A stretch of DNA of 64,000 nt from a virus. Within the stretch, counting starts at the first letter, position 1, and each line of letters starts with the position of its first letter. Of the stretch, positions 37,695 to 53,443 are shown one piece after another. The stretch is taken from IMG/VR virus record IMGVR_UViG_3300044730_001822, positions 69,427 to 133,426 of that record; one strand, written 5' to 3'. Position numbers and translations under genes: made by a program. The notes under the pieces are model-generated. The model ran no database searches and had not been told where the DNA came from. It was given only the letters and a program-made list of their open reading frames with translations.

Positions 37695-40079
37695 ATGCCA
37701 TATACCGTAACCCTAACGCGAGGAGCAGTATTTGCTAATATAGCAGACGGAACCATCAATCAAACGTCAACCATGACCTTGATTGGTCGAGATTTTGCCA
37801 ACTACGGTCAGTTCGTAGATCAAGATTTAGTTCGTTTGCTAGAATCGGGCGCTGCCACACAAAACAGAAGCGCAACCAGCGCACTCACCGGACAACTTTG
37901 GTTTGATCTAACCAATACCCAACTTAAAGTAGCCACTCTGGGTAACATACCCAATGGTGCGGCCTATACCACCAGCGGTCCTATCAAATGGCAAGGCGCC
38001 AGCCCTGCATATTCTGTAACAGCACCAGTGAACCCAGTGGTAGGCGATACTTGGATGTATACCAATACCAATGCCAACATACCGCAGATGGTAGTTTGGA
38101 CTGGTGATACAGCCAACACAAACTTCCTAGGTAATCTGCCAGGATGGAAAGTAATTGGACCTACCACACGTTCGGATATCGTTGAATTCGGTACCATCAA
38201 TGCAGATTATGCCAATTTTGATGAAACAGTAAACATAGATGTATTGTATGCCAATGTAGCTACTGTGGCCGAGTCGGTATTGATTGGACAGTATGCCAAT
38301 GGTGCCAACGTCAACACAGCATTTTTACAGGTATTGGGCGATGGCATCTATGGAAATCTCAACGGAGATCAACCCTATGTGACCAGTCTGGGTAATGCTT
38401 CCAACGGTTTTGGGTATCTCAGTAACATACAGGTTGGCAGCATATCCGGTGGAGCATTGACCACTATCAATTCCAATGTTGGTATTACCACCACCGGTTC
38501 TATCACCGGAGTACAAATTACCGGCAGTACTATCCAGGCCACAGGCGGTGGATTCTACGGTCTTATCAACGCAGCTACTTCGGATCAAAAATTCATCTAT
38601 GGCTTGGGTGTACAAGCACAGGCCTACTCTACCGCCAACAGCAACGCTATCGTTCGAGGTGGCACCAGTGCTGGTCTTGCAGTCAGTCGTAAAATCGTAG
38701 TAGACTACGGCAATGGATTTGCTGGAGTCAGCGATGTTGACATTGGCGAACCCTCGCCCACCGGTCCAAGATTCCGCGGAGTCTATGCCAACACATTCTT
38801 TGGTAATCTTTCGGGACAGATCCTTGGCGATGTGCCCAGCATCAGTTCCAATGATATTGTTGTGCCCAGTGCAGATGGCTTGATATTAATCGGCAGTGGA
38901 AACTTACAACAAGGCACCGGCAATGTCAGAATCGACGGCGGCAATGGCACAGGCAGTTTTAACAACGCTATCTATATTGGTCGCCCCGGCGGTAACTATG
39001 GCAACGGCAATGTTGGCATCATACATAGCTATGGTACCAGCACAGTATTTGGCGGGGTGGGAAATATCTTAACATTTACCGATCTTACTGGCAATTGTCT
39101 CTATGATTTCTACAAAGATGTTCGTGTACGCGGTAATTTATATGTTTTAGGAAATACTGTTACAACATCTGTCACAGAAGTTACTACCAACGACTTAGAT
39201 ATTGTTGTGGCCAATAATGTACAAACAGGCAACATCGTCAATGCCAGCGGCGCTGGCATAGTAGTAGGTGCTAACGCTACTATAAAAATGGTAACAGTTG
39301 TTGCAGGATCTAGCTCAGCTGGATATGATGCTCAACGTTGGCAAATGAATCGTAGTTTAGAGATCACAAGCGACAGTCCGGCCACGGGTGGCAGTATCGG
39401 AGATCTACGTGTAGCAGGCAATGTCTATGCCTGCACATCAGCCAGTATCGCTTCACTTAACATAACCGGCACCGGTGGTATAGTATCAACTGGCGCCAAT
39501 GTGTTGCCAGCCGCTAGCCTTACTTCTGCCAATCGTCCTATTATCGACGGCTCTACGGGTACAGTGGGTTATGCCGCAGGTTTGTATGATGCTGCCACAG
39601 GTAGATACTATTGGACTGAAGAAGGATCTGCACTGTCGGGCACTCCCTATACGGCGGTGGTTCGAGATGTCAACGGCAGTATCAATGCTACAGAATTTTC
39701 CGGTATTGCTACCAAGGCTAGATACGCTGACTTGGCCGAGATGTATTTGGCAGATCGCGAGTATGCACCAGGAACATTGGTCACAGTAGGCGGCGATGCA
39801 GAAATCACCCAATGCACCATTAATGATCATCCTTTGGGCGTAGTATCTACCAATCCAGCATACCTTATGAACACAGCTTTGGAAAATGGAACACCAGTGG
39901 CACTACGTGGCCGCGTGCCAGTTCGCATCACTGGCGCAGTACACAAAGGTGACAAATTGGGTCCCAGCGAAGTGCCCGGACTATGCACCAAAAATAATCA
40001 AGCACCAATAGCCATCGCGCTACATAATGCTTATGCAGAACCCGGTACCGAAACCACAGTCGAAGCAGTCATATTGTAA
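37695..40079 (+). CDS. tail fibre protein with C-terminal intramolecular-chaperone (peptidase G2/IMC-like) domain
   Basis: N-terminal anchor (L-G--Y--YG...LLE...GQLWFD), Gly/Asn/Thr-rich beta-shaft, C-terminal A-YADLAE-Y..PGT-V...GVVST-PAYLMN...VAL-GRVPV-I-G-V-KGD. Confidence 0.75.
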   Translation: MPYTVTLTRGAVFANIADGTINQTSTMTLIGRDFANYGQFVDQDLVRLLESGAATQNRSATSALTGQLWFDLTNTQLKVATLGNIPNGAAYTTSGPIKWQGASPAYSVTAPVNPVVGDTWMYTNTNANIPQMVVWTGDTANTNFLGNLPGWKVIGPTTRSDIVEFGTINADYANFDETVNIDVLYANVATVAESVLIGQYANGANVNTAFLQVLGDGIYGNLNGDQPYVTSLGNASNGFGYLSNIQVGSISGGALTTINSNVGITTTGSITGVQITGSTIQATGGGFYGLINAATSDQKFIYGLGVQAQAYSTANSNAIVRGGTSAGLAVSRKIVVDYGNGFAGVSDVDIGEPSPTGPRFRGVYANTFFGNLSGQILGDVPSISSNDIVVPSADGLILIGSGNLQQGTGNVRIDGGNGTGSFNNAIYIGRPGGNYGNGNVGIIHSYGTSTVFGGVGNILTFTDLTGNCLYDFYKDVRVRGNLYVLGNTVTTSVTEVTTNDLDIVVANNVQTGNIVNASGAGIVVGANATIKMVTVVAGSSSAGYDAQRWQMNRSLEITSDSPATGGSIGDLRVAGNVYACTSASIASLNITGTGGIVSTGANVLPAASLTSANRPIIDGSTGTVGYAAGLYDAATGRYYWTEEGSALSGTPYTAVVRDVNGSINATEFSGIATKARYADLAEMYLADREYAPGTLVTVGGDAEITQCTINDHPLGVVSTNPAYLMNTALENGTPVALRGRVPVRITGAVHKGDKLGPSEVPGLCTKNNQAPIAIALHNAYAEPGTETTVEAVIL

Positions 40080-40549
40080 TGAATAGTATAGACGAATTCG
40101 AAGCCTTTATAGGCCGAGAGTTTGTCTATCAGCATAACCTAATAAGCATAATAAAAAACAGTCAACATCATTTGGTTTACTCCTATGATCAGTTGAAGAA
40201 AACATACAATGGTTGCTCGATCAAACTCGAAGGCCTAGAACGCTATTCTAGAGAACTAGCGATCAAATGTGCTGGATTGAAAATTTATCATGATCACACG
40301 GGTCCGGTCACTTGCCATGCCTACAGAGCCTATCCTGGATCAGAAAGTTTTGGTCGGCACACAGATCCCATGCCAGTGTTTTTAGAAGTAATAGAAGGCA
40401 CCAAAAATCTCATAGTAGATGGAGAATGGCACACTCTTGAATCGGGCCAAACGCTGTTTATACCAGCCAATACATCACACGAGGCTATAAATCAAGACGA
40501 CAGCCTAATGTTGAGTTTTGGATTAGAATCATATCTAATTGATCGATGA
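40079..40549 (+). CDS. JmjC/cupin-4 (ROX/YcfD/NO66-like) 2OG-Fe(II) protein hydroxylase candidate
   Basis: CHAY-----S-SFG-HTD---F---IEG-K...LESG--LFIP----HEA: HxD...H triad in the Cupin_4 pattern. Confidence 0.7.
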   Translation: MNSIDEFEAFIGREFVYQHNLISIIKNSQHHLVYSYDQLKKTYNGCSIKLEGLERYSRELAIKCAGLKIYHDHTGPVTCHAYRAYPGSESFGRHTDPMPVFLEVIEGTKNLIVDGEWHTLESGQTLFIPANTSHEAINQDDSLMLSFGLESYLIDR

Positions 40550-41619
40550 CCAACTATTTCAGTTACCTCAAGACCACAGAAACCTGTAATCTAAACTGCC
40601 AACACTGCTTTACTTCAGGCACACAAGGGCGGAAGATTTTTTGGAATCCCGATCAGGTGGCAGATTTTTTCTTGAGATTTCGCGATTATGTTGGTCAGGC
40701 CAACGGAATGCACTATGAATTCCACGGCGGTGAACCTTTTTTAGCTCCAGTGTCAGACATGATCGATGTCTACGAGAAATTAAAAAATAGTTTTGATCAA
40801 ACTTCTTTTGGATGTACCAGCAATCTCACTTTTAAACTAACGCCAGACATAGAACAGTTCATACACGGACCATTGGGAAAACGAATAGGTACCAGTTGGG
40901 ATCCTGCCATAAGATTTGCTAATCAACGACAGGAGAGTCTCTGGAGACACAATGTAGAGCGCCTGCTGAACAGTGGAGTAACAATAAAATTGTTTGTGAG
41001 CGTAACACAAGATACCATCAGCATAGAACCAATCAAACTAATGGAATGGGTCCGGGATCTAGGAGTCCAGGAGTTGGATCTTGAACGTTTAACCAACAAC
41101 GGAAATGCAAGGCTGCATCCAGGAATATTTCCCGACAATCGTGATCAGGATGCTTGGTTTTTACGCCTGCATCATCAGATACAAGAACATGGAGCAAGAT
41201 CTTGGTTTACCAACGAATTCATGGAAAATATCTATGCCAAGTTTGAACAAAATTTGATAGGAGCAGGCACATTCTGCAGAGATTGCGAACAAAAACTGTT
41301 TACTATCAATGCCGACGGCACCATTGGTGGTTGCCCAAATGCTGCGCCCGAAGAAGGGTTTGGGCATATTTCTATGGGCATAGCGGAAATTATGACGCAT
41401 CCACAGCGCATACACAACATAGCCTGCGAATCGCATAGAAACCCATTGTGCTATGATTGCGATGTGTTTGATAAATGCGGATCAGACTGCCATCAATTGG
41501 GCTGGCAACACGACGTCTGTGGTGCCCCAAAAAGTCTCATGCGAGAGTTGAAATTTGGTCAGAAAATAGCGGCAAAAAACCCACGCATCTTTCGGATTCA
41601 GCCCGCTTCTACAATATAA
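40546..41619 (+). CDS. radical SAM/SPASM enzyme 1
   Basis: CNLNCQHC; FHGGEP; SPASM cysteines CRDC...GCP...CYDCDVFDKCGSDC...C. Confidence 0.9.
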   Translation: MTNYFSYLKTTETCNLNCQHCFTSGTQGRKIFWNPDQVADFFLRFRDYVGQANGMHYEFHGGEPFLAPVSDMIDVYEKLKNSFDQTSFGCTSNLTFKLTPDIEQFIHGPLGKRIGTSWDPAIRFANQRQESLWRHNVERLLNSGVTIKLFVSVTQDTISIEPIKLMEWVRDLGVQELDLERLTNNGNARLHPGIFPDNRDQDAWFLRLHHQIQEHGARSWFTNEFMENIYAKFEQNLIGAGTFCRDCEQKLFTINADGTIGGCPNAAPEEGFGHISMGIAEIMTHPQRIHNIACESHRNPLCYDCDVFDKCGSDCHQLGWQHDVCGAPKSLMRELKFGQKIAAKNPRIFRIQPASTI

Positions 41620-41622
41620 ATA
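41615..41622 (+). promoter_or_regulatory. perfect T4 late promoter TATAAATA, 5 nt before ATG of CHSS protein 1
   Basis: TATAAATAtaagcATG. Confidence 0.7.
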
Positions 41623-41627
41623 TAAGC

Positions 41628-42404
41628 ATGGCACAAATTCAATCTAATTCACTGATAAATGCTTCTAATGTAGTCAGCTCTTTTTTCACAGAAGTAGTTA
41701 GCGTTAATTCTTCGGGCACAGGAGCAACCGTGGCCAAGAACAACAATACAAATTTAGCCGATGCCGTGGTATGGGGTCCAACCGGAGGTGGACTAGGACA
41801 ACAATGGCCCACAATGACTGCCGCAGAAATTCCCCTATGGCAATCACAGTTTTCTGGTGGTACTGGGAGTTTTGCGTTAAATAGAACCGGGGCAGTGGCA
41901 GCAGGATCAAATGCCTGGGCCACCGGCAGCGTGACTCCAACTAATTTTAATTCTGCAGCACCCGGTACACCGCAAGATCCTGTTTACGCCAGCAAGTATT
42001 CAGGTTCGGGAGTACCCAGTTCCACAGCATTGTTATATACGGCTGCCAGACAATATCTTTCAATCAATTGGACCACAGCCACTAGATATCTACTGGGCGG
42101 TAGTCCCACTGTATATGGGCCTTTTAAAGGTACCTTTAATACTGCTCAGTTCTCTAATAATTTTAACAATTCTATTGGACCATTGGGATACGATGGCGGC
42201 GAGGATTTAGGCAGTGTAGCCGACTCTACCTATGGTGCCGGTAACACTGTGGCCAATCCGTCGGATCAAACTGAGTGGGGCATCAATAATTATTTCCAAG
42301 CACTAAAGACTGCTTTCAATTCAAGGCCAGTATCTACGGTCAGTATCACAGTTTGTCATTCTAGTTGTCACAGTAGCTGCCACGGAAGCCGTGGCAGGAG
42401 ATAA
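41628..42404 (+). CDS. CHSS-tail protein 1 (258 aa; putative modified structural protein / RiPP-like substrate)
   Basis: G/S/T/N/A-rich body with no Cys or His; C-terminus CHSSCHSSCHGSRGRR. Start reassigned from 41475 to ATG 41628 behind the late promoter. Confidence 0.8.
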   Translation: MAQIQSNSLINASNVVSSFFTEVVSVNSSGTGATVAKNNNTNLADAVVWGPTGGGLGQQWPTMTAAEIPLWQSQFSGGTGSFALNRTGAVAAGSNAWATGSVTPTNFNSAAPGTPQDPVYASKYSGSGVPSSTALLYTAARQYLSINWTTATRYLLGGSPTVYGPFKGTFNTAQFSNNFNNSIGPLGYDGGEDLGSVADSTYGAGNTVANPSDQTEWGINNYFQALKTAFNSRPVSTVSITVCHSSCHSSCHGSRGRR

Positions 42405-42406
42405 CC

Positions 42407-43189
42407 ATGACTATCTCCACCGGTGATCTAATAAGATCTCAAAATCCCGGCAACGCTCAAAGCATAATACAAAGTTTTATCAATGGATATCTGGCATCTA
42501 CCAATGCCAACAGTCCTAACAACAGTCTTGTGTTTTATACCGGGAGTTATCCAACTAGAACTGTTCCCACAGCATATCGTGCATCAGCCGACGCAGTTTA
42601 TGCTGGTCTGGGCTTATTCACTGGCATCGGTAATCGTGTGTCTAATGTTATATCAGACAGTAATATAGCCAACGTCAGTAACAATACTATATTTGCCAAT
42701 ACGGGCGTGACGTTGACTTATGGTAACAATGCAGCCCAGGCCATAACCACCGGCAATACATACACAGGATTCAGCCAAATATTTTTTAGAGAATTACAAA
42801 GATATTTGATTTATAGAAACATCTATGCCAGCACTTCTATCACAGGTAATATGTATCCTGCCAACGTTCCATTTATTGATCAAGGCAAAGGCTTGATCGA
42901 TCCTAGTTTTTCAGGAGCAGGAGTAACCAATTGGAATGGTGGAGCCATTGATCCAAATGCTATAACAAATCCCGCTGGTAATGCTAATTTAGCCACAGAC
43001 AGTGCGGTCAGTGCCGACACCAATGGTATCATTGGTGGAGAAGATGCCACAGCTTTTAATACCTATTGGTCACAGTTGATGACCAATTGGGTGGCAGCTT
43101 ATTCGGGCACTGGTACTATTTCAATCACTACAACATTATGCCACAGCAGTTGCCACAGCAGTTGCCATGGTTCACGAGGACGGAGATAA
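42407..43189 (+). CDS. CHSS-tail protein 2 (260 aa; paralogue of protein 1)
   Basis: Same composition, no Cys or His outside the tail; identical C-terminal 16 aa. Confidence 0.85.
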   Translation: MTISTGDLIRSQNPGNAQSIIQSFINGYLASTNANSPNNSLVFYTGSYPTRTVPTAYRASADAVYAGLGLFTGIGNRVSNVISDSNIANVSNNTIFANTGVTLTYGNNAAQAITTGNTYTGFSQIFFRELQRYLIYRNIYASTSITGNMYPANVPFIDQGKGLIDPSFSGAGVTNWNGGAIDPNAITNPAGNANLATDSAVSADTNGIIGGEDATAFNTYWSQLMTNWVAAYSGTGTISITTTLCHSSCHSSCHGSRGRR

Positions 43190-43192
43190 CAA

Positions 43193-43924
43193 ATGTCAAA
43201 CACAATTCATACTATCGCACCCATCAGTTTAGATAATCTAAAATTATATTTTGCAGATAAAACTATAAACTATCTTGTGGATTATAAAAACAGCAAATTG
43301 CAAGGTCAAAAGTTACTTACATATCTTGGAAACTTAGATCTCAAAGCAGATATCCAAATCGACGATGCCCGCGATCCAGAATTCCTTGAACTACTTAAGG
43401 TATACTTCGAAAGCACCACCTTGGTCAATGTGCCTTCTTTGGAAAGAGCTGCTATACAGGTGTTGTTTGAATATCGCGGACTAGTACCCAGTGATTTTTT
43501 CTCGGAATTTATACAAAATAATCAAGAGGTATTAAGTTCCTGGACTAGTAAGTTAGATAGTCTGGTGCTGTACAATACTTGGATTATCAATGATCAAGCA
43601 GCCAAAGACGAAGTGTCGTCTTTCCCCTTAGATGAAACTGACAGCATAGATGGCATAAACTGGGTTAGTTTGCTTAAACACGAAGATTTTTACTTTTACT
43701 TTCAAACCGTTGATTTTTCAAATTTAAAGAACTATACTCGCTATTTTAACGAAAATCTGTTTAAAGGCAAGAATCTCTATACTTTTTGGGCCAACGAAAA
43801 AAATCCTATGTTTCTTATCACTTGGGGCATATTAGAGCAACAAATAAATAGTACTGAGTGGGCCACACTGCTGAACAAAGCCACACAAGAGATTAAGGAT
43901 CAAGAAAATGCTACATCTGTTTAA
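43193..43924 (+). CDS. hypothetical protein in the radical SAM cluster
   Basis: 243-aa ORF 3 nt after CHSS protein 2; no motif recognised. Confidence 0.7.
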   Translation: MSNTIHTIAPISLDNLKLYFADKTINYLVDYKNSKLQGQKLLTYLGNLDLKADIQIDDARDPEFLELLKVYFESTTLVNVPSLERAAIQVLFEYRGLVPSDFFSEFIQNNQEVLSSWTSKLDSLVLYNTWIINDQAAKDEVSSFPLDETDSIDGINWVSLLKHEDFYFYFQTVDFSNLKNYTRYFNENLFKGKNLYTFWANEKNPMFLITWGILEQQINSTEWATLLNKATQEIKDQENATSV

Positions 43925-45035
43925 AAGGGTATATTTGTCCATAGATGAAACCCTAGATACATCTAATCATAGAATTGTGATAAGCCAAGATTATGGTTAT
44001 CCAATGGTCACAGATCAAACTAACCTTGGTACTCTACTAAATTACGCCACAAGTTTAGATGCTGTTATTGGTCCCGACGCAGCGTTTGCTAACTATCTTG
44101 GGTTTTTTAATTACCTAGATGGCCAGTGCGATAGTCTTGATGCACAGTTGGTTGTATATGCCGATAAAGATGCATTTGTAAAACTATCAACTAACTTTTT
44201 ACGAGCAGCACTGCCATTGGCCAACGCACAAGATATATATAGGATCCTATCTTACTATCTTGCTAGACAAAATTTACTTTGCTCCAGTGCAAATTATTAC
44301 AGCCCTGTACAGAATGTTGAAAGGCTCAAAAGCAAGACAGGTATCACGCAAGAAGAAGTTTCTGCAGAGTTTTTTGCCAATCGAGTCAATCCACCGGATT
44401 TCTATGCTTTTTTTGCTTCTAAGTACAAGGATCTCAGTATCGAGTACGTGGCAGCAACTTATAGTTACAACGGACGTCTGGCAACCGAGATGGCCGAACA
44501 GCTGAGATCATTTGCCATCAAACACGCTTATATGTGTGCTATCGAATCTAGACAAGCAATCTGTGACACTTTGTTATCTGCACATACACAGTCAGTATTA
44601 AATCTCGCCAATCTTCCAGTGCAAGAAATGATCAATGTAGTTAAAAACGCTGATAGTACTGCAATCTTTTTTGATGAAAGAGTATTCCCCAGAGAGGAAT
44701 CTACAGTCAGTCTTGATGCCAATTGGCGCAAATTATCAACAGCAGATATTGTAAAACTGTCAAGGATGTCTATCAAGGTACTACACGAAATTGAAAAATG
44801 GCCCATCATGCAAGATCTAGGTTATAACTCCATGCAGGTTTTACAGGCTATAGTTGATATCAATAATCCCCAGGCCTGGCAACGACATGCAGATAAAATG
44901 TTAGACAATCTTTGTCTTGTGGCCAATGAAGCAGAGCCACATAAAGTCAATGCATTGCTAGTAAATTATATCACAGAAAATCGTGGTGCCAATAAAGATT
45001 TATTGCGACCTTTTGTTGTCAACGGTTGTTACTAA
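43908..45035 (+). CDS. hypothetical protein in the radical SAM cluster
   Basis: 375-aa ORF overlapping the previous gene; no motif recognised. Confidence 0.7.
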   Translation: MLHLFKRVYLSIDETLDTSNHRIVISQDYGYPMVTDQTNLGTLLNYATSLDAVIGPDAAFANYLGFFNYLDGQCDSLDAQLVVYADKDAFVKLSTNFLRAALPLANAQDIYRILSYYLARQNLLCSSANYYSPVQNVERLKSKTGITQEEVSAEFFANRVNPPDFYAFFASKYKDLSIEYVAATYSYNGRLATEMAEQLRSFAIKHAYMCAIESRQAICDTLLSAHTQSVLNLANLPVQEMINVVKNADSTAIFFDERVFPREESTVSLDANWRKLSTADIVKLSRMSIKVLHEIEKWPIMQDLGYNSMQVLQAIVDINNPQAWQRHADKMLDNLCLVANEAEPHKVNALLVNYITENRGANKDLLRPFVVNGCY

Positions 45036-45046
45036 AAGAGGATACC

Positions 45047-46736: not shown

Positions 46737-48363
46737 CTAGAAGCAGCCGTATCATTGAATCATTGCTGGCAATAAAATCTGCTATGACATCTTGCTTGTA
46801 TCGTTGTTGTCCCGAATCATCCGCGAGATAAAACAAATCTCTGGCTTCGGTTGTGCAATCGTATAAATCAACTATCTGTTGATGTATGTGATCAAATCCC
46901 GGGCAGCTTTGCAGTATAGGGTACATACGTCTCATAAAGTCACTGATACTGATTGAATCTCGATACTGATCATAGTAGTTCATTCTTAAAGATTGTGCTG
47001 CTTGATTCATGAAATACATTTCATATAAATCTTGCCGAGAAAAACTATAGCAGCTGGCAATGGTATGAAAGTAATTTTTAGTGCCAAACATACTGGTGCT
47101 GTAGATAGCAGTCAGCTCCACTGAATGCTTTTCTAAATCGCCGGTGCTACTGGCCTCGGTAGCAGGTAGATAACTATATTCAAATCTAGGATCTGACCAA
47201 GAATGCAGTATCTCCATCATTGCAAATTCACTGTAGAAGTCGTCGATGGTGCTGCCCGGCATGCCCATTATAAATTCCACTGAAGCAATCTCTTTGATCT
47301 CTGCATAGGGTCTGCGGAAAAACTCTTCTCCGTATCGGTCTTTTAATCTATCGCGTATGTGATAGCACAGTTCAAACTGTTGCTCTAGTGTTAGATCGGG
47401 TCGTAGGGCATTGGTCAATGCTTCCTGGCTAAAGGTCTGAACCGATAAATTGGCACGCAGGCCTAGATTCACCAGTTGATCAATAATTCTTTTTTTACGC
47501 TCTAGCTTTTCTGTTTTTAGCAAACTCAACACATGAACACGCATACCTTTGCGTTTGATGATTTCTAGCATTTCAAAGTCGCGCTTTTCCAGCATTCCTA
47601 TGTTGGAATCAATCAAATCTATGGTCTTGAAACCCAGTTCTTCGATGCAATCCAAATCCTCGCGTATCTGCTCGATTGTTTTCTTTTCTAGTTTGACACC
47701 AGTTCCGCCACCCCACTCGCAGAAGGTACAGCGGAAAGGACAACCTCTGGTGCTTTCGTAGGTCATGCTCACAGGCATACCGCGGCTTTCAAAGTAGGCC
47801 TTGGCACGAGCTATATAGTCATAGTGTTCGCGATACACGCTAACATATGGATAGTAAAAACTCTTTTTAAGTCCACGACTTTTGATATCGAACGCTATCT
47901 CCAATGGATCGGGACGTCCGTTATTTTTAAACCAACTGTCAATCCAATCCTGCATATACAACTCTGCTGGCATGGTAGGTTCGCAGATGTAATCATACAT
48001 GGAATAACGATGTTCAAAATCTTTACGGTGTATGTCTACCTGCGGCCCGCCTATCTGTGTCAATATATGTGGATGATGCTGCTTGATCCAGCAGGCGGCC
48101 TGATCGTTGATTGAATAGTTCCAGATATAACTGCTGAACATGATGACATCGGCATCAACATATCGCTCAATGGCCTCTTCTACGGTCTTGATATCATACC
48201 AATCGTATATGGGTTCAATCCATTCTACTGAATCTCTATGCCTGCCATGTAAATCGTAATGCGTCTTGGCAAACATCCAAGTGAGATTCCAAGCATAAAA
48301 ATCTCTCTCTGCACTGGGATTGAAAAAGGCTATCCTCAAAGGACTCGTATTTGATCTTGCCAT
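46717..48363 (-). CDS. B12-binding-class (class B-like) radical SAM enzyme
   Basis: N-terminal Rossmann-like domain (FSSYIWN...GGPQ) then YESTRGCPFRCTFCEWG, D-N-G, SVQT, I-GMPG-T. Confidence 0.8.
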   Translation of the reverse strand: MARSNTSPLRIAFFNPSAERDFYAWNLTWMFAKTHYDLHGRHRDSVEWIEPIYDWYDIKTVEEAIERYVDADVIMFSSYIWNYSINDQAACWIKQHHPHILTQIGGPQVDIHRKDFEHRYSMYDYICEPTMPAELYMQDWIDSWFKNNGRPDPLEIAFDIKSRGLKKSFYYPYVSVYREHYDYIARAKAYFESRGMPVSMTYESTRGCPFRCTFCEWGGGTGVKLEKKTIEQIREDLDCIEELGFKTIDLIDSNIGMLEKRDFEMLEIIKRKGMRVHVLSLLKTEKLERKKRIIDQLVNLGLRANLSVQTFSQEALTNALRPDLTLEQQFELCYHIRDRLKDRYGEEFFRRPYAEIKEIASVEFIMGMPGSTIDDFYSEFAMMEILHSWSDPRFEYSYLPATEASSTGDLEKHSVELTAIYSTSMFGTKNYFHTIASCYSFSRQDLYEMYFMNQAAQSLRMNYYDQYRDSISISDFMRRMYPILQSCPGFDHIHQQIVDLYDCTTEARDLFYLADDSGQQRYKQDVIADFIASNDSMIRLLLVNELMA

Positions 48364-48923
48364 TGCTCTTGTATTCTGTATCCAAACACCATGCTTTGTC
48401 TATCGGTATCGCCAAAGTAAGGCCGTATTTTATGTATGAGATATCCAGGAAACATGACCAAGCGATTACTGAATGGTCTGATATGCACTGCATTGTCGGG
48501 CCAATTGAGTGCTGTAAAGTTTTTGTAGATGCTTAGTTCTCCGCCTGCCCAGTTTTGTTCAGTGTATTCGCTGCGGATATACAGTATGCAGGCCAAGAAG
48601 TAATTCTCTGCTATGTCTTCGTGCGGTTCCCAAAAAGGATTCTGCCAATTTGATTTATTATAAGCACGAAAGTTGGCTATCTGGAAGTTTGTGAGTTGTA
48701 ATCTCTCTGCGTCTATGTTGAGATCTTGGCAGTAGTTATAAACGCAGGCATCGATACGAAACTTGACATTGTCAAAATATGCACATTCGCTGGGATCAAG
48801 ACTGATATAGAATTCTTGTTTATTTAGAAATTTCTCTGTGATGAATTCACTGATGTTATCCCTTAATCTATCATCTAACAGGCCATCCTCGACGATGATG
48901 TTATCTCGAAATTGATGTATCAT
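48336..48923 (-). CDS. 2OG-Fe(II) oxygenase (prolyl-4-hydroxylase-like fold)
   Basis: PHED...ILY...W-GGEL...P--NRLV-FPG---H-I-P...R-S. Confidence 0.85.
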   Translation of the reverse strand: MIHQFRDNIIVEDGLLDDRLRDNISEFITEKFLNKQEFYISLDPSECAYFDNVKFRIDACVYNYCQDLNIDAERLQLTNFQIANFRAYNKSNWQNPFWEPHEDIAENYFLACILYIRSEYTEQNWAGGELSIYKNFTALNWPDNAVHIRPFSNRLVMFPGYLIHKIRPYFGDTDRQSMVFGYRIQEQWQDQIRVL

Positions 48924-49534
48924 AGTATGCGATTAGGATAGCACTTGAGGTCTCGTAGTCCCCAACAGTTGATTATGGCTGTGCGTGGTGTATGGCCAAA
49001 ATAAGGGTTCACACGATGTACATTGAAAGCACTGAACACTATCAGTCTATTCAGCAAAGGTTTAATCCTCACAGTGTTTTTGGGAAATTGGCCACAACTT
49101 AGATCCTTGTACAATATCAATTCGCCACCTACCCATTGATCCGATTGTTCATATTCGCTATTGACATACAGTATGGTATTGATAAACACATTTTCGGCCA
49201 TGTCATGATGTGGTTCGTGGAAAGCGTCACGGCTCATGTGTTCATTGAATCGATTTAGCCAAGCAACCTGGCAATTGGTATACTCAAGGTTATCCCAATC
49301 AACATCTACCTGCATACAGTGTTCCAAGGCCGCTGCTTCGACCATGGGAAAAAGCCGGCGCATGATCAAACTATGGTTGTCATTGATATCTTGATTGATT
49401 AAACTATAGGTATTGCCTGCAGGAGCGATGGTGGCTATCTGATGGTCGCACTCTTTCTGCAGTTCTTGTAAAAGATCTGCATCAACAAAATTTTCATGTA
49501 TGGAAAGGTGTTCAGACCACAGCGTATGTAGCAT
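48920..49534 (-). CDS. 2OG-Fe(II) oxygenase, paralogue of the adjacent gene
   Basis: PHHD...ILY...W-GGEL...P--NRLIVF----H-V-PY-G--PR; shares EPHxDxAEN, GGELxxYK and PYFGxT with 48336-48923. Confidence 0.85.
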   Translation of the reverse strand: MLHTLWSEHLSIHENFVDADLLQELQKECDHQIATIAPAGNTYSLINQDINDNHSLIMRRLFPMVEAAALEHCMQVDVDWDNLEYTNCQVAWLNRFNEHMSRDAFHEPHHDMAENVFINTILYVNSEYEQSDQWVGGELILYKDLSCGQFPKNTVRIKPLLNRLIVFSAFNVHRVNPYFGHTPRTAIINCWGLRDLKCYPNRIL

Positions 49535-49582
49535 ACCAGTATTTAGCGACCCAGTATTTTAGCACAGTAAATACTTGGTATG
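49532..49582. promoter_or_regulatory. back-to-back divergent late promoters forming an inverted repeat
   Basis: CATACCAGTATTTA (49532-49545) ... TAAATACTTGGTATG (49568-49582); each arm is TAAATA + 5-6 nt + ATG. Confidence 0.65.
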
Positions 49583-50662
49583 GATCTGATCATCAAACCC
49601 ACAGAACTTTGTAACTTCAAATGCACCTTTTGTTCCAGTACGAATATCACTGACAACAAAAATGCCACGCTGTCTGTTGATCAAATATTCCAATTCCTTG
49701 AACGATTTCCTGACACCAAAACAATCATAGTCAACGGCGGCGATCCACTCATGATGTCGCCTGCATACTATTGGAAGATCATTGACTGGTTGGACTTACA
49801 TGAGTATGATACCAGCGTCAGCTTTACCACTAATCTTTGGCCTTTTTATAAGAATCCAGAGAAGTGGGCGGACTTGTTCAATCACGAACGCATGGGTATA
49901 ACTACCAGTTTTCAATATGGTGGAGGTAGACTTAAGGGAGATCTCACCGAGTTTTCGGAATCCGACTTTTGGAAATGCAGTGACGCCATGCTACGCTATT
50001 GTGGATATAGGCCAGACTTTATCACAGTAATAACTGAAGAAAATGCAGATCGTGCTCTCGACAATGTGAGACTGGCCAAGAAGATGGATGTAGAATGTAA
50101 ACTGAATTATGCTTTCAGTTCAGGACCTCCTGTGAAGTTTCGCAACATCATCATGGGCCAGCAAGGTCGTCCTTTCGTACTGGCAGACATCTATGAAATC
50201 TATCTTGAAATTTGGCGTGAAGGTTTGTATCCCTGGGAACACAGTACCAAGACCATGATGAAACGACTGCGCGGTGAATCCACCATCTGCCCTCAGAATC
50301 GAGACTGTGATGTAGGCATACGCACACTACAACCTTCGGGCGACTACTACAGTTGCGGAGCCTTTGGTGATGACAAAGAATACGCTATAGATTTTGAACA
50401 GGAGATGAACAGTAAAACAATCATCAGGATACTGAACGATAAACCAGAACTGCAAAGCCTCAAGCAGAGCTGTTACAGTTGTCCTATGTTTGATATCTGC
50501 AATGGCTGTCGCAAAACCATAACCGATCTCAAGAGGCATAATCTGGTTGAACGCCACTGTAGTAAAATGAAAACACTAGCAGCTGATATCATTGAAGCTA
50601 ATGGTCTTGCTGGAAAATTAGAACCTACTGAATATGTGAAAGAATATGAATATATCACTTAA
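49580..50662 (+). CDS. radical SAM/SPASM enzyme 3
   Basis: IIKPTELCNFKCTFC; NGGDP; SPASM C-----C...G--YSC...CYSCPMFDICNGC...C. Confidence 0.9.
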   Translation: MDLIIKPTELCNFKCTFCSSTNITDNKNATLSVDQIFQFLERFPDTKTIIVNGGDPLMMSPAYYWKIIDWLDLHEYDTSVSFTTNLWPFYKNPEKWADLFNHERMGITTSFQYGGGRLKGDLTEFSESDFWKCSDAMLRYCGYRPDFITVITEENADRALDNVRLAKKMDVECKLNYAFSSGPPVKFRNIIMGQQGRPFVLADIYEIYLEIWREGLYPWEHSTKTMMKRLRGESTICPQNRDCDVGIRTLQPSGDYYSCGAFGDDKEYAIDFEQEMNSKTIIRILNDKPELQSLKQSCYSCPMFDICNGCRKTITDLKRHNLVERHCSKMKTLAADIIEANGLAGKLEPTEYVKEYEYIT

Positions 50663-51563
50663 CCCTTGGTATTACTGTAACTTCCGTTGTAAGTTTTGTT
50701 ATCTGACAGAAGGACAATTGTCTAGTCAGAAACTTATAAAGTTAGATACATTAGAAGAAAGATTACAGCAAGTGTTAGCACACTATGGCGTAGTTGATCA
50801 GATTGACGTTTATGGCGGCGAAGTGGCACTCTTGCCTCAGCAGTATTTTGATGACATGACTACAGTGCTCAAACGGTATTGTAAAAATCTAAATATGATT
50901 ACCAATCTCAGTGCTGTAAATCAAATTACAGAACATCCAGATTACAGTCTCAGTGTCAGTTACGATTTCAGTGCTAGGGAAAAACATGATTTGGTTTATA
51001 AGAATATGAGTATGCTTAAATCTGACTTTAGTGTGCTGATGTTGGCAAGTTCGCATTTGGTTTCTCTTGATCCCAACTATATGATTAATATGTTTAATCT
51101 TATACCAAGTCTTAGATCCGTAGAGATCAAACCCTACAGCCGTAACCAGGCCAATGATTTGGGAGTCACAGACAAAGATTTTGAAAACTATGTGATACGT
51201 TGGCTAACAGCTGCAGTTCCTAAAAAATTTGAGTTCGTCAATGATTTTTTGATAAAAAATGTATTGCAAGGACAGTCAAACAGCTACAGTGATGATCACA
51301 TATACATCACACCAAATGGTAGATTTGCGGTGTTAGAATTTGATATCAATGATCGAGAGTACTTCTTAGAAATGGATACCATTGAAGAATATCAACAATG
51401 GTGTGAACAAGAAAAACGACGTGTAAATCTCAATGAATACTGCAGAGACTGCGAGTTCAAAGGACGTTGTTTAAGTGAACATCTGCGTGAAGTCAAAGAT
51501 ATCAAAATGAGTTGCAACGGTTATAAACATTTGATACAATGGTATGGTCGTCAATACGCTTAA
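50646..51563 (+). CDS. radical SAM enzyme 4 with partial SPASM domain
   Basis: CNFRCKFC; YGGE; C-terminal CRDCEFKGRCLSEH...C. Confidence 0.85.
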   Translation: MNISLNPWYYCNFRCKFCYLTEGQLSSQKLIKLDTLEERLQQVLAHYGVVDQIDVYGGEVALLPQQYFDDMTTVLKRYCKNLNMITNLSAVNQITEHPDYSLSVSYDFSAREKHDLVYKNMSMLKSDFSVLMLASSHLVSLDPNYMINMFNLIPSLRSVEIKPYSRNQANDLGVTDKDFENYVIRWLTAAVPKKFEFVNDFLIKNVLQGQSNSYSDDHIYITPNGRFAVLEFDINDREYFLEMDTIEEYQQWCEQEKRRVNLNEYCRDCEFKGRCLSEHLREVKDIKMSCNGYKHLIQWYGRQYA

Positions 51564-52236
51564 CCCTGCCGCATATGTTCAGCGGATTAAAATTATCACA
51601 GAGTCTAATCAACAACAGATAACGCCATCCCTGTTAGAACAAGCGGCATTGGAACGATCGCCAAACTATCGTCATCGGGACGGAAGGATCTATGCCAGCA
51701 ATCCAAGCGAACCTTATTTTGCTGTCAGCGTTAGTCCATTGAATCCAGAGTTTGAAAATCAAATAGAATCTGGTATATTGCCCGTGGTTATGGCATTGTT
51801 ACAGCGCAACTATCTTCCCATCAGCAGTTGTGAAGGGCACGGCGACAGTAGAAGTTTTGTTAGGATCGTGTTTGGATCTGATCAATCTGCAGATGAATTT
51901 ATCAACGAGTTTGGTACCATGGAATATGTAACCCTGGAGAAATTACAAACCAGTGCAAACATTGTACAATGGTGGGAAAATGGTCAACCTCATTGGCGGC
52001 CAAAATACAACGACGAAATCACAAATTCCAACTTAGAGACTCAGGAAATTAATCTTTTGTTCAAACGAAACTATGTCCAGGTTTGCTACGTGGATATCAA
52101 TCTTTATGATGTCAACCAAAAATTTTGGGATTTTTTCAAACGACAAAAAATGATAAAAGATATCATGTCTAACAAAAAGCAGCGTTTGGACTGCATCAGA
52201 GATCGGATATTGTCAATGAAAGTCTACGAACTATGA
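51544..52236 (+). CDS. hypothetical protein with SSCEGH motif
   Basis: IE-GI-P-V-AL----Y-PISSCEGH; coupled to neighbouring genes. Confidence 0.65.
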   Translation: MVVNTLNPAAYVQRIKIITESNQQQITPSLLEQAALERSPNYRHRDGRIYASNPSEPYFAVSVSPLNPEFENQIESGILPVVMALLQRNYLPISSCEGHGDSRSFVRIVFGSDQSADEFINEFGTMEYVTLEKLQTSANIVQWWENGQPHWRPKYNDEITNSNLETQEINLLFKRNYVQVCYVDINLYDVNQKFWDFFKRQKMIKDIMSNKKQRLDCIRDRILSMKVYEL

Positions 52237-52634
52237 AAGAGTGGAAAGTACGCCAGGAAGTATATCACAGGCTTACACAAGAACATGGCGACGACTTGAA
52301 TCAGTGCAGTATTGAAATAGTCCACGATGTTGTGGCATCGGCTGTGAGATATTTCCATGAGCATGATATTGGATGGTTGTATCCCAGTAAAAGTTATGTT
52401 GTAGCTATTTTGTATGCCAAGTGGCTGAATGAAGAATTTGGCGAAGACTTTTTGATTGCTCTGGACGATCCAGAACTTTTATACAACAATGATCCTTACT
52501 TTGTACCTTACAGCCAAGATCCTGAAACTTATGTCAAGATCATTGCCGCGTTACCTCAGGACATGACACAAGGTAGGATACCAGATATACGAGATTATTT
52601 TGAAAGAGAGTTTATGATATGCAGCCAGGAATGA
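52233..52634 (+). CDS. hypothetical protein
   Basis: 133 aa with ATGA overlaps on both sides; W-YPSKSY, DPYF-PY motifs. Confidence 0.7.
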   Translation: MKEWKVRQEVYHRLTQEHGDDLNQCSIEIVHDVVASAVRYFHEHDIGWLYPSKSYVVAILYAKWLNEEFGEDFLIALDDPELLYNNDPYFVPYSQDPETYVKIIAALPQDMTQGRIPDIRDYFEREFMICSQE

Positions 52635-53200
52635 ATCTACTGTATCCTACGCCGGTACAATACACGACTATGCAGAATGAAAACATCTGTCAACAGTTGA
52701 TAGATGCGCTAATGATCAATGTTAACCTGGCCGAGCCAACCAAAGAAAAACTAGGTGAGAATCTGTTAGATTTGGATTTGCCTGAGATTGCGCAGTGGGT
52801 GGAGCACGAAGTATATCCGGCCTTTGATCAATATTTGTATGCTACCACCGGGCGGCGTATAAATGATTTTTGTAGATACAAGTTTAAGTCTTGGCTTACT
52901 GGTACCCAAGGTAATTATCATCTGATTCTACATAATCACAGCGGCAGTCATTACAGTGGTGTTTTTTATCTTTTGGCCGAGGAATCAACGCAAGGAGGGC
53001 AGTTAGTATTCAGTGATCCCAGATCTAATGCCAATCGAGGATATGATTTTGGCAGAGAACAATTTGGTTACACTCATATACAGCCCAAGACCGGAGATGT
53101 TTACATTTTCCCCAGTTTCTTGTATCACTTTGTGATGCCTTATGCAGGAACGCTAAGGCTATGTGTGCCGGTGGATCTATATCTTTTTGACGAATCGTAA
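52631..53200 (+). CDS. putative 2OG-Fe(II) oxygenase (TIGR02466-like phage family)
   Basis: L-YPTP...SW......H--HNH-----SGVFY...G-L-F-DPR...P--G---IFPS-L-H-V-P----R. Confidence 0.8.
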   Translation: MNLLYPTPVQYTTMQNENICQQLIDALMINVNLAEPTKEKLGENLLDLDLPEIAQWVEHEVYPAFDQYLYATTGRRINDFCRYKFKSWLTGTQGNYHLILHNHSGSHYSGVFYLLAEESTQGGQLVFSDPRSNANRGYDFGREQFGYTHIQPKTGDVYIFPSFLYHFVMPYAGTLRLCVPVDLYLFDES

Positions 53201-53443
53201 GCAGTATTCTACTGCTTCGCGCTCGGCGAAACTGGCACGGATGCTACACCGATAACCATAGGTGTTGTAATCGGCGCCGATGTGATAACTGGGAGTTTCC
53301 GCAGCATTCTCCATGACCCACTTGCCTGCGTCGGTCTGTTGCCATTCGTACATGGGTTGTGCCGCATAGATATCAGGATCTTCTACATCACCTATTGAGC
53401 ATTCGAATACAGTATAGGTATGAAGGTCAGTTGACAAACTCAT
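53177..53443 (-). CDS. hypothetical phage protein
   Basis: GDVEDPDIYAAQP-YEWQQT--GKWVMEN; overlaps the thyX stop. Confidence 0.65.
   Translation of the reverse strand: MSLSTDLHTYTVFECSIGDVEDPDIYAAQPMYEWQQTDAGKWVMENAAETPSYHIGADYNTYGYRCSIRASFAEREAVEYCLRFVKKI

Follow-up and report, generated by a model that had tools for sequence, protein, structure and literature searches.

A radical SAM and oxygenase gene cluster of a lake phage and its most likely target, the Cys-His-x-Ser end of two variable proteins

Gene content of the cluster

The window is a 64,000-nt stretch of DNA from a lake phage (IMGVR_UViG_3300044730_001822, positions 69,427–133,426). An earlier note had described a cluster at 40079–53200, 3′ of a tail-fibre gene, made up of five radical SAM (rSAM) enzymes, three 2OG-Fe(II) oxygenases, a JmjC-like cupin, five proteins of unknown function and two proteins with the C-terminal sequence CHSSCHSSCHGSRGRR. 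Using family profiles from Pfam, NCBIfam and PHROG, together with regular expressions for Cys and HxD/E motifs, we confirmed this observation, with 16 of 16 genes in place, while the interpretation attached to it was partly supported. Genes lie on the plus strand unless marked otherwise. The tail-fibre gene (37695–40079), the conserved upstream neighbour of the cluster, encodes a 794-aa protein with a C-terminal intramolecular-chaperone (IMC) autocleavage domain (Pfam Peptidase_G2 IMC domain, residues 659–728, 27.5 bits against a cut-off of 25).

All five rSAM proteins carry a CxxxCxxC motif and match Pfam Radical_SAM, two with scores (46.7 and 36.5 bits) above the curated cut-off of 29.5 and three scoring 20.0, 24.2 and 29.2, the last of these being enzyme D. 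A complete Cx2Cx5Cx2-3C SPASM core with flanking Cys residues is present in enzymes A (40546–41619, 357 aa; CNLNCQHC at residue 14; phrog_1802, 3.2e-60), B (45026–46099, 357 aa; CNLSCQFC at residue 35; SPASM core CISCQWLDRCTFSC; phrog_1802, 4.8e-42) and C (49580–50662, 360 aa; SPASM domain 27.2 bits against a cut-off of 27). Enzyme C is the best conserved, with homologues at 49–71% identity. Since enzyme D (50646–51563, 305 aa; CNFRCKFC at residue 11) has just Cx2Cx5C (residue 266) and two more Cys, the four SPASM enzymes counted previously amount to three full and one partial. Pairwise identity among A–D is only 20–25%, and they are therefore four distinct enzymes rather than recent copies. 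The fifth, an accessory protein encoded on the minus strand (46717–48363, 548 aa; Radical_SAM 5.3e-12), is a putative C-methyltransferase. Its description as B12-class-like agrees with a B12-binding match (6.2e-7) that lies below cut-off (29.7 versus 32.1 bits), and it matches the KedN5 family at 3.1e-24, yet with 85 bits against a cut-off of 700.

The best family matches of the cluster enzymes are to families that modify proteins and peptides, namely PapB, the CXXX-repeat maturase, DynA, anSME and SPASM proteins, with a JmjC_2 match for the cupin. None of the enzymes reaches the NCBIfam cut-off of a peptide-maturase family; the matches fall far below these cut-offs, so homology does not reveal the chemistry. 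The rSAM enzymes start directly with the rSAM motif and lack a recognition domain at the N-terminus, and an RRE-like partner for them was not identified.

The cupin (40079–40549, 156 aa), a putative Fe(II) oxygenase, matches Cupin_2 (4.4e-11), JmjC_2 (1.8e-8) and phrog_8014 (1.6e-22) and has HTD at residue 94 followed by later His residues. Two accessory oxygenases on the minus strand, a (48336–48923, 195 aa; HED at residue 101) and its paralogue b (48920–49534, 204 aa; 38% identity to a), match 2OG-FeII_Oxy_3 at 5.2e-6 and 2.5e-8, respectively. The third, 2OG_c (52619–53200, 193 aa), matches 2OG-FeII_Oxy_5 (2.6e-15) and TIGR02466 (38.6 bits, cut-off 62.5); a canonical HxD/E motif was not found in it by regular expression. 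Among the remaining proteins, g05 (43193–43924, 243 aa) matches phrog_20767 (6.1e-52) and gave an AF2 model with pLDDT 92.1, with which no convincing PDB match was obtained, and g15 (52233–52634, 133 aa) matches phrog_20737 (2.2e-49), with no PDB sequence match and no Atlas match of use; no recognisable fold or family was found for either. Neither g06 (43908–45035, 375 aa; found in long-type loci) nor g08 (46050–46736, 228 aa; a lineage-restricted accessory) has a match in Pfam, NCBIfam or PHROG, and the rare accessory g14 (51544–52236, 230 aa) has weak Pfam matches only, well under cut-offs.

Two proteins with one C-terminal tail

Tail protein 1 (41628–42404, 258 aa) and tail protein 2 (42407–43189, 260 aa) carry the tail at 42354–42401 and 43139–43186, respectively. 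Their tails are identical, as the earlier note had stated; the last 16 residues are shared. At the nucleotide level 12 of the 16 codons differ, every one synonymously; on this comparison, selection is acting on the peptide rather than on the DNA. The bodies of both proteins contain no Cys and no His, and in 98 of 132 distinct members of the family every Cys lies within the tail. For tail protein 1 the start is most likely at 41628 rather than at the first ATG (41475), the equivalent Met being used by 12 of its 13 full-length homologues (47–93% identity). The late promoter that had been proposed did not hold up: TATAAATA (41615–41622) occurs once in the 64-kb window, where 2.29 copies are expected by chance.

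Tail protein 1 has no Pfam or NCBIfam match and matches phrog_35144 at its C-terminus only; contigs from other lake samples carry a different or strongly diverged mid-body. The body of tail protein 2 could not be aligned to that of tail protein 1 by BLASTP, but it retains the N-terminal helix of the family and an ‘IVWGT’-like pattern, as read from the sequences by eye. Pfam detected no peptidoglycan-binding or other domain in the tail proteins. Bodies in the family measure 124–296 aa and include conserved N-terminal modules. Besides Cys and His, the tail conserves Ser (or Asn/Gln) at the fourth position of the unit and an RxRR end; in the set derived from the search pattern described below, the invariance of Cys, His and Arg is partly imposed by that pattern. 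Of 7 variable positions, paired tails within one genome disagree at 0.8 and tails of different genomes at 2.38; none of 5000 permutations reached this within-genome similarity. Gene conversion may contribute to it, nucleotide identity being 0.98–1.0 in 2 of 30 pairs.

Co-occurrence of tail and enzymes and linkage to fibre genes

A degenerate DNA pattern of the tail with a terminal stop codon was searched in IMG/VR and GTDB. At least 119 IMG/VR contigs contain it, as do 22 stretches of GTDB metagenome-assembled genomes (MAGs), 12 of which are titled as Bdellovibrionota lineages; in every case it stands ahead of a stop codon. The 119 pattern loci from IMG/VR and three cultured-phage records make up the 122 loci listed, 121 of which contain a total of 151 tail ORFs; the cultured jumbo phages RSL2 (ORF068) and Atu_ph07 (gp170) carry the tail. 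With a profile of the final 75 residues, 711 cluster representatives were matched at E ≤ 1e-3, 291 of them at E ≤ 1e-10, and among the matches listed the match ended at the last residue of the protein in 150 of 150, as judged by eye. Judged by its position, the tail is a fixed C-terminal module, and its recurrence is not what chance would produce.

Near the tail, rSAM A and g05 were each found at 83 of the 122 loci listed, rSAM B at 64, the cupin homologue at 44, the g06 homologue at 41 and rSAM D at 31. The B12-binding rSAM (14/122), oxygenase a (13/122), oxygenase b (12/122) and g14 (2/122) were less frequent, and g08 was seen at none of the 122 and at 2 of 80 rSAM A loci. Where rSAM A and g05 were missing from the vicinity of the pattern, an rSAM A homologue was present elsewhere on the contig in all five cases examined (E ~1e-105). 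The 80 loci identified through rSAM A comprise 63 with readable downstream DNA, 4 that are truncated and 13 compact enzyme cassettes. In 63 of the 63 readable loci the gene directly 3′ of rSAM A was a (CHxx)3-4-RxRR-stop ORF, a result free of tail-pattern bias because the search was anchored on rSAM A, although the regular expression still demanded CH and RxRR. The compact cassettes begin with 2OG_c, include g15, which is also present at the MAG loci, and are accompanied, at another place on the same contig, by two tail genes in tandem (5/5 examined). In such pair-type phages two short tailed proteins lie behind the fibre gene and the enzymes lie elsewhere (10/10 contigs examined); g05, always 3′ of long-type tail genes, is missing from their cassettes. 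Cultured-phage records matched by rSAM A are the same 15 as those matched by g05. These loci are mutually related, so the counts do not represent independent events. The expected association holds in both directions, from tail pattern to enzymes and from rSAM A to tail; tails were not commonly without rSAM genes, nor the reverse. Tail and enzyme set occur together in phages of unrelated lineages and also in bacteria. The set is widespread yet unstudied, and our literature search found no paper on a Cys-His-tail rSAM system.

The last ~130 residues of the fibre protein match DNA adjoining tail genes at 68 of the 122 loci listed and at 57 of the 80 rSAM A loci. Five MAGs (2.9–4.0 Mb, each with one to four Peptidase_S74 matches) have one S74 match 3.4–9.4 kb from the tail gene. 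By these matches the system adjoins, in phages and in the five MAGs, fibre proteins bearing a self-cleaving chaperone domain, and predatory bacteria carry the same enzyme set beside fibre genes of their own. In the two MAG regions examined the cluster lies among housekeeping genes and is therefore not obviously a prophage.

Related systems and the nature of the tail

Whereas the earlier note knew of no characterised system with this architecture, a characterised analogue does exist in the bacterial HXS antiphage defence (HxsA/B/C/D; Li et al., Nat Commun 2026, PMC13128918), the nearest system known to us; none of its family models (TIGR03976–03979) is matched at cut-off by the cluster proteins. 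From the sections of that report available to us, HxsB and HxsC mature HxsA in E. coli, and a +8 Da modification on SHRSS is required for function. In both systems rSAM enzymes with a small partner act, or would act, on a full-size protein rather than a short peptide, and the target bears His-x-Ser units in tandem, with many basic residues. The phage unit, in contrast, is Cys-His-x-Ser, in three to four repeats at the extreme C-terminus with RxRR behind them; the phage set has four rSAM enzymes of SPASM type along with oxygenases, against two rSAM enzymes described for HXS; no peptidoglycan-binding domain was found here; and the carriers are phages and Bdellovibrionota-type MAGs, beside fibre genes, rather than a gammaproteobacterial defence island. 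The Crp system of Methanococcus voltae, compared by its description only, also combines a SPASM rSAM enzyme with a Cys-rich protein in one cluster, CrpC placing thioether (ranthionine) cross-links on CrpA (PMC13692751, seen in part). Its substrate motif and host are unrelated, and CrpC has a predicted RRE whereas the window enzymes begin at the rSAM motif.

The closest solved structure to rSAM C is anSME (PDB 4K36/4K37 of 4K36–4K39; TIGR03942), matched over nearly the full length (residues 2–324, E 1e-5). In NCBIfam this enzyme matches DynA (9.4e-15) and anSME (1.8e-10; 40.5 bits, cut-off 349), both far under cut-offs. The last tail unit, C-H-[GST]-S-R, spaces Cys, Ser and Arg as the sulfatase motif C-x-P-S-R does, with Gly, Ser or Thr in place of Pro, and the tail proteins showed no sulfatase fold in Pfam; formylglycine formation on the tail is one hypothesis. 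Across its full length (residues 8–317), rSAM A is matched best in NCBIfam by PapB (NF047865; 42.3 bits, cut-off 340) and the CXXX-repeat maturase TIGR04115 (32.9 bits, cut-off 350), whose targets have four-residue Cys spacing. PapB can link a Cys thiol to a residue with a C-terminal carboxylate, according to the part of the report available (PMC12373016), whereas the tail is without an Asp or Glu acceptor and belongs to a protein of 125–300 aa. A further hypothesis is a triceptide-type cross-link: His-x-Ser fits the aromatic-x-x motif of three-residue cyclophane synthases (HaaB, HtkB), in which, in the account consulted, a ring atom is linked to the β-carbon of the third residue, as in the His-C2 to Lys-Cβ link made by HtkB (PMC11499958). 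YhhB, AmcB, XyeB and GrrM gave weak matches (E 2e-6 to 0.03), far under cut-offs.

Overall, the most likely target of the enzyme set is, we infer, the constant Cys-His-x-Ser end carried by two proteins that otherwise vary greatly. We consider it probable, with some reserve, that the set is a dedicated post-translational maturation system whose product stays intact and fibre-linked. The core would consist of the mutually distant rSAM A, B, C and D, the small g15, the JmjC-like cupin and a 2OG-type oxygenase, with the B12-rSAM methylase and further 2OG oxygenases optional in some lineages. Their substrate would be the invariant (Cys-His-x-Ser)3-4-Arg-x-Arg-Arg-COOH tail of fast-evolving proteins. 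The rSAM enzymes may abstract a hydrogen atom at Cys, His or Ser, giving thioether links, His-to-β-carbon links and/or conversion of Cys to formylglycine; the oxygenases may hydroxylate His or Arg, and the B12 enzyme may C-methylate. The tail would remain uncut, and the matured whole protein could act with trimeric fibres bearing the self-cleaving (S74/IMC) chaperone domain, presumably as an adhesin, a cap or an anchor in the apparatus that attacks the host or prey. HxsA, with its +8 Da change on SHRSS (PMC13128918), and CrpA/CrpC (PMC13692751) are, on the portions of those reports consulted, precedents for rSAM action on a whole protein.

The tail might instead be a metal site (Zn, Fe, Cu or Fe-S) without covalent modification, to which each chain would contribute three Cys and three His, perhaps pooled across a trimer, and the enzymes might act on another substrate, for instance the fibre or a nucleotide, sugar or lipid. 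T4 fibres have HxH iron sites, and the linkage to trimeric fibre genes, the invariance of Cys and His in the tail together with their near absence elsewhere in the protein, the sub-cut-off enzyme matches and the missing recognition partner all agree with such a site. We nevertheless think it unlikely, since rSAM A stands directly upstream of the tail gene in every readable locus, the entire enzyme set moves with the tail through unrelated phages and bacteria, and bare metal binding leaves the conserved Ser/Asn/Gln position and RxRR unexplained; moreover, metal binding and covalent modification are mutually compatible. Similarly improbable is a true RiPP or cofactor pathway, in which the conserved 16–20 residues would be a heavily tailored core cut from an unusually long leader to give a metallophore, toxin, signal or redox cofactor (cf. 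PQQ, mycofactocin). Cofactor-type RiPPs do combine a conserved core with variable upstream sequence, as seen here, and redox tailoring enzymes are many. However, profile searches of the 16 proteins of the cluster turned up no family of proteases, transporters or immunity proteins, and the tail genes lie behind fibre genes, sometimes distant from the enzymes. The bodies have conserved N-terminal modules and full-length homologues, and are therefore proteins under selection and not spacers; the mosaic, hypervariable body of tail protein 1 differs among natural strains as surface proteins do. Nor is release of a free peptide, an option raised earlier, likely, given that the cassette showed no protease or exporter family.

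It is also doubtful, and a little more so, that the matured basic, His-rich tail binds DNA or the envelope as an HXS-like phage effector, serving superinfection exclusion or as a decoy or antagonist of host HXS-type defence. The tail does present three H-x-S units followed by basic residues, and the basic HxS repeats of E. coli HxsA are required against phage DNA entry, as stated in the accessible part of the report (PMC13128918). The scores for HxsB (16.7 bits, cut-off 370) and HxsC (29.1, cut-off 267.9), the lack of any HxsD match, the absence of NCBIfam matches and of a peptidoglycan-binding domain in the tail proteins, and defence-family matches confined to generic rSAM N-terminal stretches speak against this role. 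Chromosomal copies beside S74 fibre genes in predatory bacteria do not fit a phage-versus-phage function.

For the fibre-linked maturation that we favour, a place of the tailed protein in the virion is only hinted at. In the records of RSL2, RSF1 and SURPRISE13 the tail protein is annotated as ‘hypothetical’ and the gene two to three upstream as ‘virion structural protein’, which speaks weakly against an abundant virion role. In the Atu_ph07 paper, as far as the text available describes it, the structural cluster defined by mass spectrometry, ‘CDS 170-215’, starts at the tail-protein gene.

Gene content and order of the cluster

The ORF listing and family scans bore out the inventory of cluster genes given in the earlier note. 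Its source is a 133-kb IMG/VR record with an estimated completeness of 37%, of which the window forms the right-hand half, and near-identical DNA occurs in 20 runs from 15 studies (freshwater, lake, river and 'fungus metagenome'); none of the sequencing runs listed as matching the window DNA is of the RNA type. The cluster (40079-53200) lies directly behind a fibre gene (37695-40079) whose 794-residue product carries a Peptidase_G2 intramolecular-chaperone domain at its C-terminus. A cupin/JmjC-like protein (40079-40549) is encoded first after the fibre, followed by the radical SAM enzyme rSAM A (40546-41619) and then by tail proteins 1 (41628-42404, 258 aa) and 2 (42407-43189, 260 aa), both of which end in CHSSCHSSCHGSRGRR. 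The uncharacterised proteins g05 and g06 come next, then rSAM B (45026-46099) and the uncharacterised g08, after which a B12-type radical SAM enzyme (46717-48363) and two paralogous 2OG oxygenases, 2OG_a and 2OG_b, are found on the minus strand. The last five genes encode, in order, rSAM C (49580-50662), rSAM D (50646-51563), the uncharacterised g14 and g15, and a 2OG-FeII_Oxy_5 protein (2OG_c, 52619-53200). Since 2OG_b (minus strand) and rSAM C (plus strand) diverge with just 45 bases between them (49535-49579), the cluster appears to comprise three transcription blocks and not one operon.

The start of tail protein 1 at 41628 is backed by homologues. The codons for the two tails differ at 12 of 16 positions and the encoded tails are identical; neither protein body contains Cys or His. 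Tail protein 2 begins with MTISTGDL (42407-42440). It had been proposed that these proteins are made from a late promoter. The sequence concerned, a supposed T4-type late promoter (TATAAATA at 41615), occurs once in 64 kb, where 2.29 copies would be expected by chance, and we discount it as evidence. The G+C content is 0.40-0.44 over positions 40001-54000 as against 0.45-0.49 on the flanks, which is compatible with a mobile cassette. Just beyond the cluster is an ORF on the minus strand (53427-54092), named ThyX-like from reading the sequence, whose homologues adjoin the cassette in two other collected loci, L021 and L123, with 58-60% identity.

Structure prediction gave a confident AF2 model for g05 (pLDDT 92.1). 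Against the PDB, the best Foldseek E value for this model was 0.48 and the best VIA-align Z score 4.4, the latter over residues 1-57 only, and we do not claim a new fold; a PDB profile search returned nothing and the Atlas no usable match. For g15, PDB matches were at chance level and Atlas scores below 0.9. The model of tail protein 1, built from 14 sequences, has a pLDDT of 32.7 and is unusable for the fold of the body, while the predicted complex of tail protein 1 with g05 scored 0.00, a value that speaks neither for nor against pairing.

The tail family and its association with the enzymes

In order to collect relatives, we searched with a degenerate DNA-level pattern for (C-H-x-S)3-R-x-R-R followed by a stop codon. 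Matches were found in at least 119 viral contigs of IMG/VR and, with one genome per GTDB species searched, in 22 stretches, all from metagenome-assembled genomes (MAGs). The 119 pattern loci and three cultured-phage records make up a set of 122 loci, 121 of which yielded 151 tail ORFs of 124-296 aa. The tail is present in the cultured jumbo phages RSL2 (ORF068) and Atu_ph07 (gp170), and rSAM A and g05 each match 15 records of cultured jumbo phages, an identical set for both (Ralstonia, Burkholderia, Agrobacterium, Sinorhizobium and Pseudomonas). Searching with a profile of the 75 C-terminal residues retrieved 711 cluster representatives (50% identity) at E<=1e-3, of which 291 pass E<=1e-10, and among the matches listed the profile reached the final residue of the protein in 150 of 150 rows. 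With at least 119 viral contigs, 711 representatives bearing the C-terminal module, 15 cultured records and MAGs of predatory bacteria, the system is no one-off, and the cultured phages that carry it allow direct bench testing.

The conserved C-terminal part exceeds the tail, which is preceded by a helix and a beta-strand, and most long members of the family have an N-terminal module in common. The Ser position of the tail can also be occupied by Asn, Gln or Ala, and in two members from Bacteriovoracia MAGs (L134:864-1433 and L138:156-764) the number of CHxS units is four and not three. Neither Pfam nor NCBIfam holds a model for the family, and its sole PHROGs entry is phrog_35144, of unknown function. 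Megablast of the cluster against a phage collection gave no match there, and tblastn queries with tail protein 2 and with one of the short proteins that occur as pairs behind fibre genes were equally negative; such searches are defeated by the divergence of the family and the shortness of the tail. The T4 prohead-protease consensus is L-x-E; a site of this kind before the tail was considered and rejected, since the motif found at that place is x-L-E-[TS]-[FY]-F. In two long family proteins, P0105 (453 aa) and P0159 (483 aa), the tail module is preceded by a Pfam Gly_rich_2 domain. A Peripla_BP_3 match in a third, P0067, was judged to reflect a probable chimeric or miscalled ORF.

The co-occurrence of tail and radical SAM genes, which the earlier note had put forward as a check, was confirmed from both ends. 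Among the 122 tail-anchored loci, many of which are short or cut, rSAM A and g05 were each found in 83, a fibre with the chaperone domain in 68 and rSAM B in 64; the corresponding numbers are 44 for the cupin, 41 for rSAM C and 31 for rSAM D. Five contigs showed no more than a fibre and a pair of short tail genes at the locus, and each of the five encodes a homologue of rSAM A at another place on the contig (E about 1e-105). From the opposite direction, 80 of 167 stretches anchored on rSAM A were kept. In all 63 loci with readable downstream DNA, the gene after rSAM A is an ORF ending in (CHxx)3-4-RxRR-stop, and g05 follows; four further loci are incomplete, and 13 are compact enzyme cassettes without a tail gene, in the order 2OG_c, cupin, rSAM A, rSAM C, rSAM D, g15, rSAM B. 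A tandem pair of (CHxx)3 genes was present elsewhere on the contig in each of the five compact-cassette contigs tested, and a sixth also contains such a pair (L044).

These locus contents define two architectures of the system. In one, a single long tail protein is embedded among the enzymes, together with g05 and g06; in the other, two tail proteins of about 127 aa lie directly behind the fibre gene and the enzymes are encoded elsewhere. Both occur on one 151-kb phage contig (IMGVR_UViG_3300025138_000014, loci L052 and L065). Tails from the same genome differ at 0.8 of seven variable positions, as against 2.38 between genomes (30 distinct pairs), a value not attained by any of 5000 permutations. 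This likeness fits a constraint imposed on both tails of a genome by shared enzymes, and the mean nucleotide identity of the tail DNA in same-genome pairs is only 78%. Common descent and occasional gene conversion also contribute to the likeness; nucleotide identity is 98-100% in two of the 30 pairs. Overall, the genomic grounds for a link between putative substrate and enzymes are strong. The earlier interpretation, that the enzymes mature the tail, is thus supported in part; the chemistry, cellular site and function proposed for the system are inferred.

Candidate chemistry and comparison with known systems

All five radical SAM proteins contain the CxxxCxxC motif. Four of them had been described as SPASM-type; we found the full set of SPASM Cys residues in rSAM A, B and C and only a partial set in rSAM D. 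Against the SPASM model TIGR04085, rSAM C scored 27.2 bits, above the cut-off of 27, and rSAM A 23.2 bits, below it. Pairwise identity among rSAM A-D is 20-25%, indicating four different enzymes and not recent copies. The B12-type enzyme scored 46.7 bits with Radical_SAM, 29.7 bits with Pfam B12-binding (cut-off 32.1) and 85 bits with the KedN5 family (cut-off 700).

The family matches that bear on chemistry (PapB, CXXX-repeat maturase, DynA and anaerobic sulfatase maturase, anSME) all score far under their cut-offs. Thus rSAM A aligns over its full length, weakly, with PapB (42.3 bits, cut-off 340, below equivalog level) and with the CXXX-repeat maturase TIGR04115 (32.9 bits, cut-off 350); phmmer against the PDB gave no match to it at E<=1. 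rSAM C scored 40.5 bits with the anSME model TIGR03942 (cut-off 349.45) and also aligns with DynA, and its closest solved structure, judged by sequence only, is anSME. The final tail unit, C-H-[GST]-S-R, brings to mind the sulfatase motif C-x-P-S-R, and a Pfam scan found no sulfatase domain in the tail proteins. The H-x-S of the tail fits the cyclophane motif of triceptides. Cupins of the JmjC_2 type include protein Arg and His hydroxylases. It is possible that the tail gains thioether links, His-to-beta-carbon links and/or formylglycine, and we would expect more than one type of reaction on it. If the tail is modified in this way, radical-SAM RiPP-type chemistry would act on a phage protein tied to host recognition, and enzyme discovery would gain a new substrate motif, with four mutually distant SPASM-type enzymes on one 16-residue core.

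The nearest characterised system is HXS defence (PMC13128918), in which HxsA carries five basic HxS repeats and is matured by HxsB, HxsC and HxsD, with +8 Da on SHRSS. The window system is alike in outline and differs in motif, enzyme set, carrier and genomic context. It shares the tandem His-x-Ser feature, with three HxS units inside (CHxS)3 and four in some MAG members. The search with Hxs families suggested earlier failed for every model: tail proteins 1 and 2 matched no NCBIfam family at E<=0.1, among them TIGR03979, which we take to be the HxsA family; rSAM A scored 16.7 bits with HxsB (TIGR03978, cut-off 370); rSAM C scored 29.1 bits with HxsC (TIGR03977, cut-off 267.9) over residues 8-85 only; and HxsD was absent from the matches of the 16 window proteins (the best 25 families for four of them). 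Cross-linking of a whole protein by a SPASM enzyme is described for CrpA/CrpC in part of PMC13692751. A classical RiPP cluster would have a short precursor with a leader, whereas the precursors here are 124-296 aa long, and no protease, transporter or RRE family was detected in the 16 window proteins with Pfam, NCBIfam and PHROGs, used without RRE-specific models.

None of the defence models of PADLOC-DB 2.0 (2023) describes the window proteins. rSAM A-D gave only short pVip matches, which cover 53 to 150 residues of the radical SAM N-terminal stretch depending on the protein, g05 matched Cas6b at E 8e-4, and the B12-type enzyme matched the candidate family PDC-M51A. We file the system under putative rSAM-dependent protein maturation. 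The open-access literature searched yielded no study of the tail or the system; in the portions of PMC5468394, PMC8066314 and PMC11898562 consulted, the same genes are named only as accessory 'radical SAM/cupin/2OG' genes and the tail is not treated.

Self-cleaving fibres, predatory bacteria and the possible site of action

Of the stretches found in MAGs, 12 of 22 are titled as Bdellovibrionota lineages, and some of these lie on contigs of 0.3-1.29 Mb. The MAG loci contain a tail protein, g05, rSAM A-D, g15 and the cupin, in some cases with the B12 enzyme as well; the system is not confined to viruses. One Bacteriovoracaceae MAG (L127) has two tail proteins about 0.6 kb apart (G014:C5:202491 and 203071), as in some phages. 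In two genomes the cluster lies amid housekeeping genes (serine dehydratase, Mrp-type ATPase, YchF, PBP1, carbamoyl-phosphate synthase and secretin), and proteins with a Peptidase_S74 chaperone domain adjoin it. One of these proteins, of 348 aa and from Pseudobdellovibrio (L238:7597-8643, plus strand), has a type IV pilin N-methylation motif in addition to its Peptidase_S74 domain. Five MAGs, four titled as Bdellovibrionota lineages and one as 'bacterium', have one to four S74 matches each per 2.9-4.0 Mb, and in all five the tail gene has such a match at a distance of 3.4-9.4 kb. Bdellovibrio S74 fibres are surface adhesins used on prey, as stated in sections of PMC10769870. Taken together, the adjacency to chaperone-bearing fibres in phages and to S74 proteins in MAGs points to a probable functional link with fibres of the trimeric, self-cleaving kind.

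The middle of tail protein 1 is replaced or strongly divergent in contigs from other lakes. In a 3.5-kb contig from a different river sample, other sequence stands in place of two segments, of 218 and 56 bases, and the stretch that separates these segments has 38 differences (41727-42251); only 5 of 939 bases differ in the adjacent tail protein 2 gene. Region 41727-42251 is a strain-level mosaic hot spot, and the strain differences listed fall in the protein bodies, none in either tail. Mosaic variation is typical of surface proteins. In Atu_ph07 the tail protein is gp170, the RefSeq and published numbering agreeing at gp181, and PMC6102473 places most MS-detected virion proteins in clusters that include 'CDS 170-215'. 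The position of gp170 at the start of this MS-defined cluster hints at a place in the virion. Counting against a virion role, three phage records label the tail protein 'hypothetical', with the gene two or three places upstream labelled 'virion structural protein'.

An unlikely but specific proposal is that the modified (Cys-His-x-Ser)n tail forms a covalent or metal-bridged 'rivet', fixing interchangeable, fast-evolving receptor-binding proteins onto trimeric fibres after the self-cleaving chaperone domain is shed, so that radical SAM chemistry would assemble an attack apparatus common to jumbo phages and predatory Bdellovibrionota. More generally, if the tail is modified as proposed, the many rSAM and 2OG genes of large phage genomes that have been without an explanation would gain a function, and a common maturation kit would connect phage fibres with the S74 fibre adhesins of Bdellovibrio-like predators.

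Directly upstream of the fibre genes in the window is a single plus-strand ORF of 6027 aa (18812-36895). Its position is matched in Atu_ph07 by gp180, a 13-kb gene for a 'T4-like phage structural protein'.
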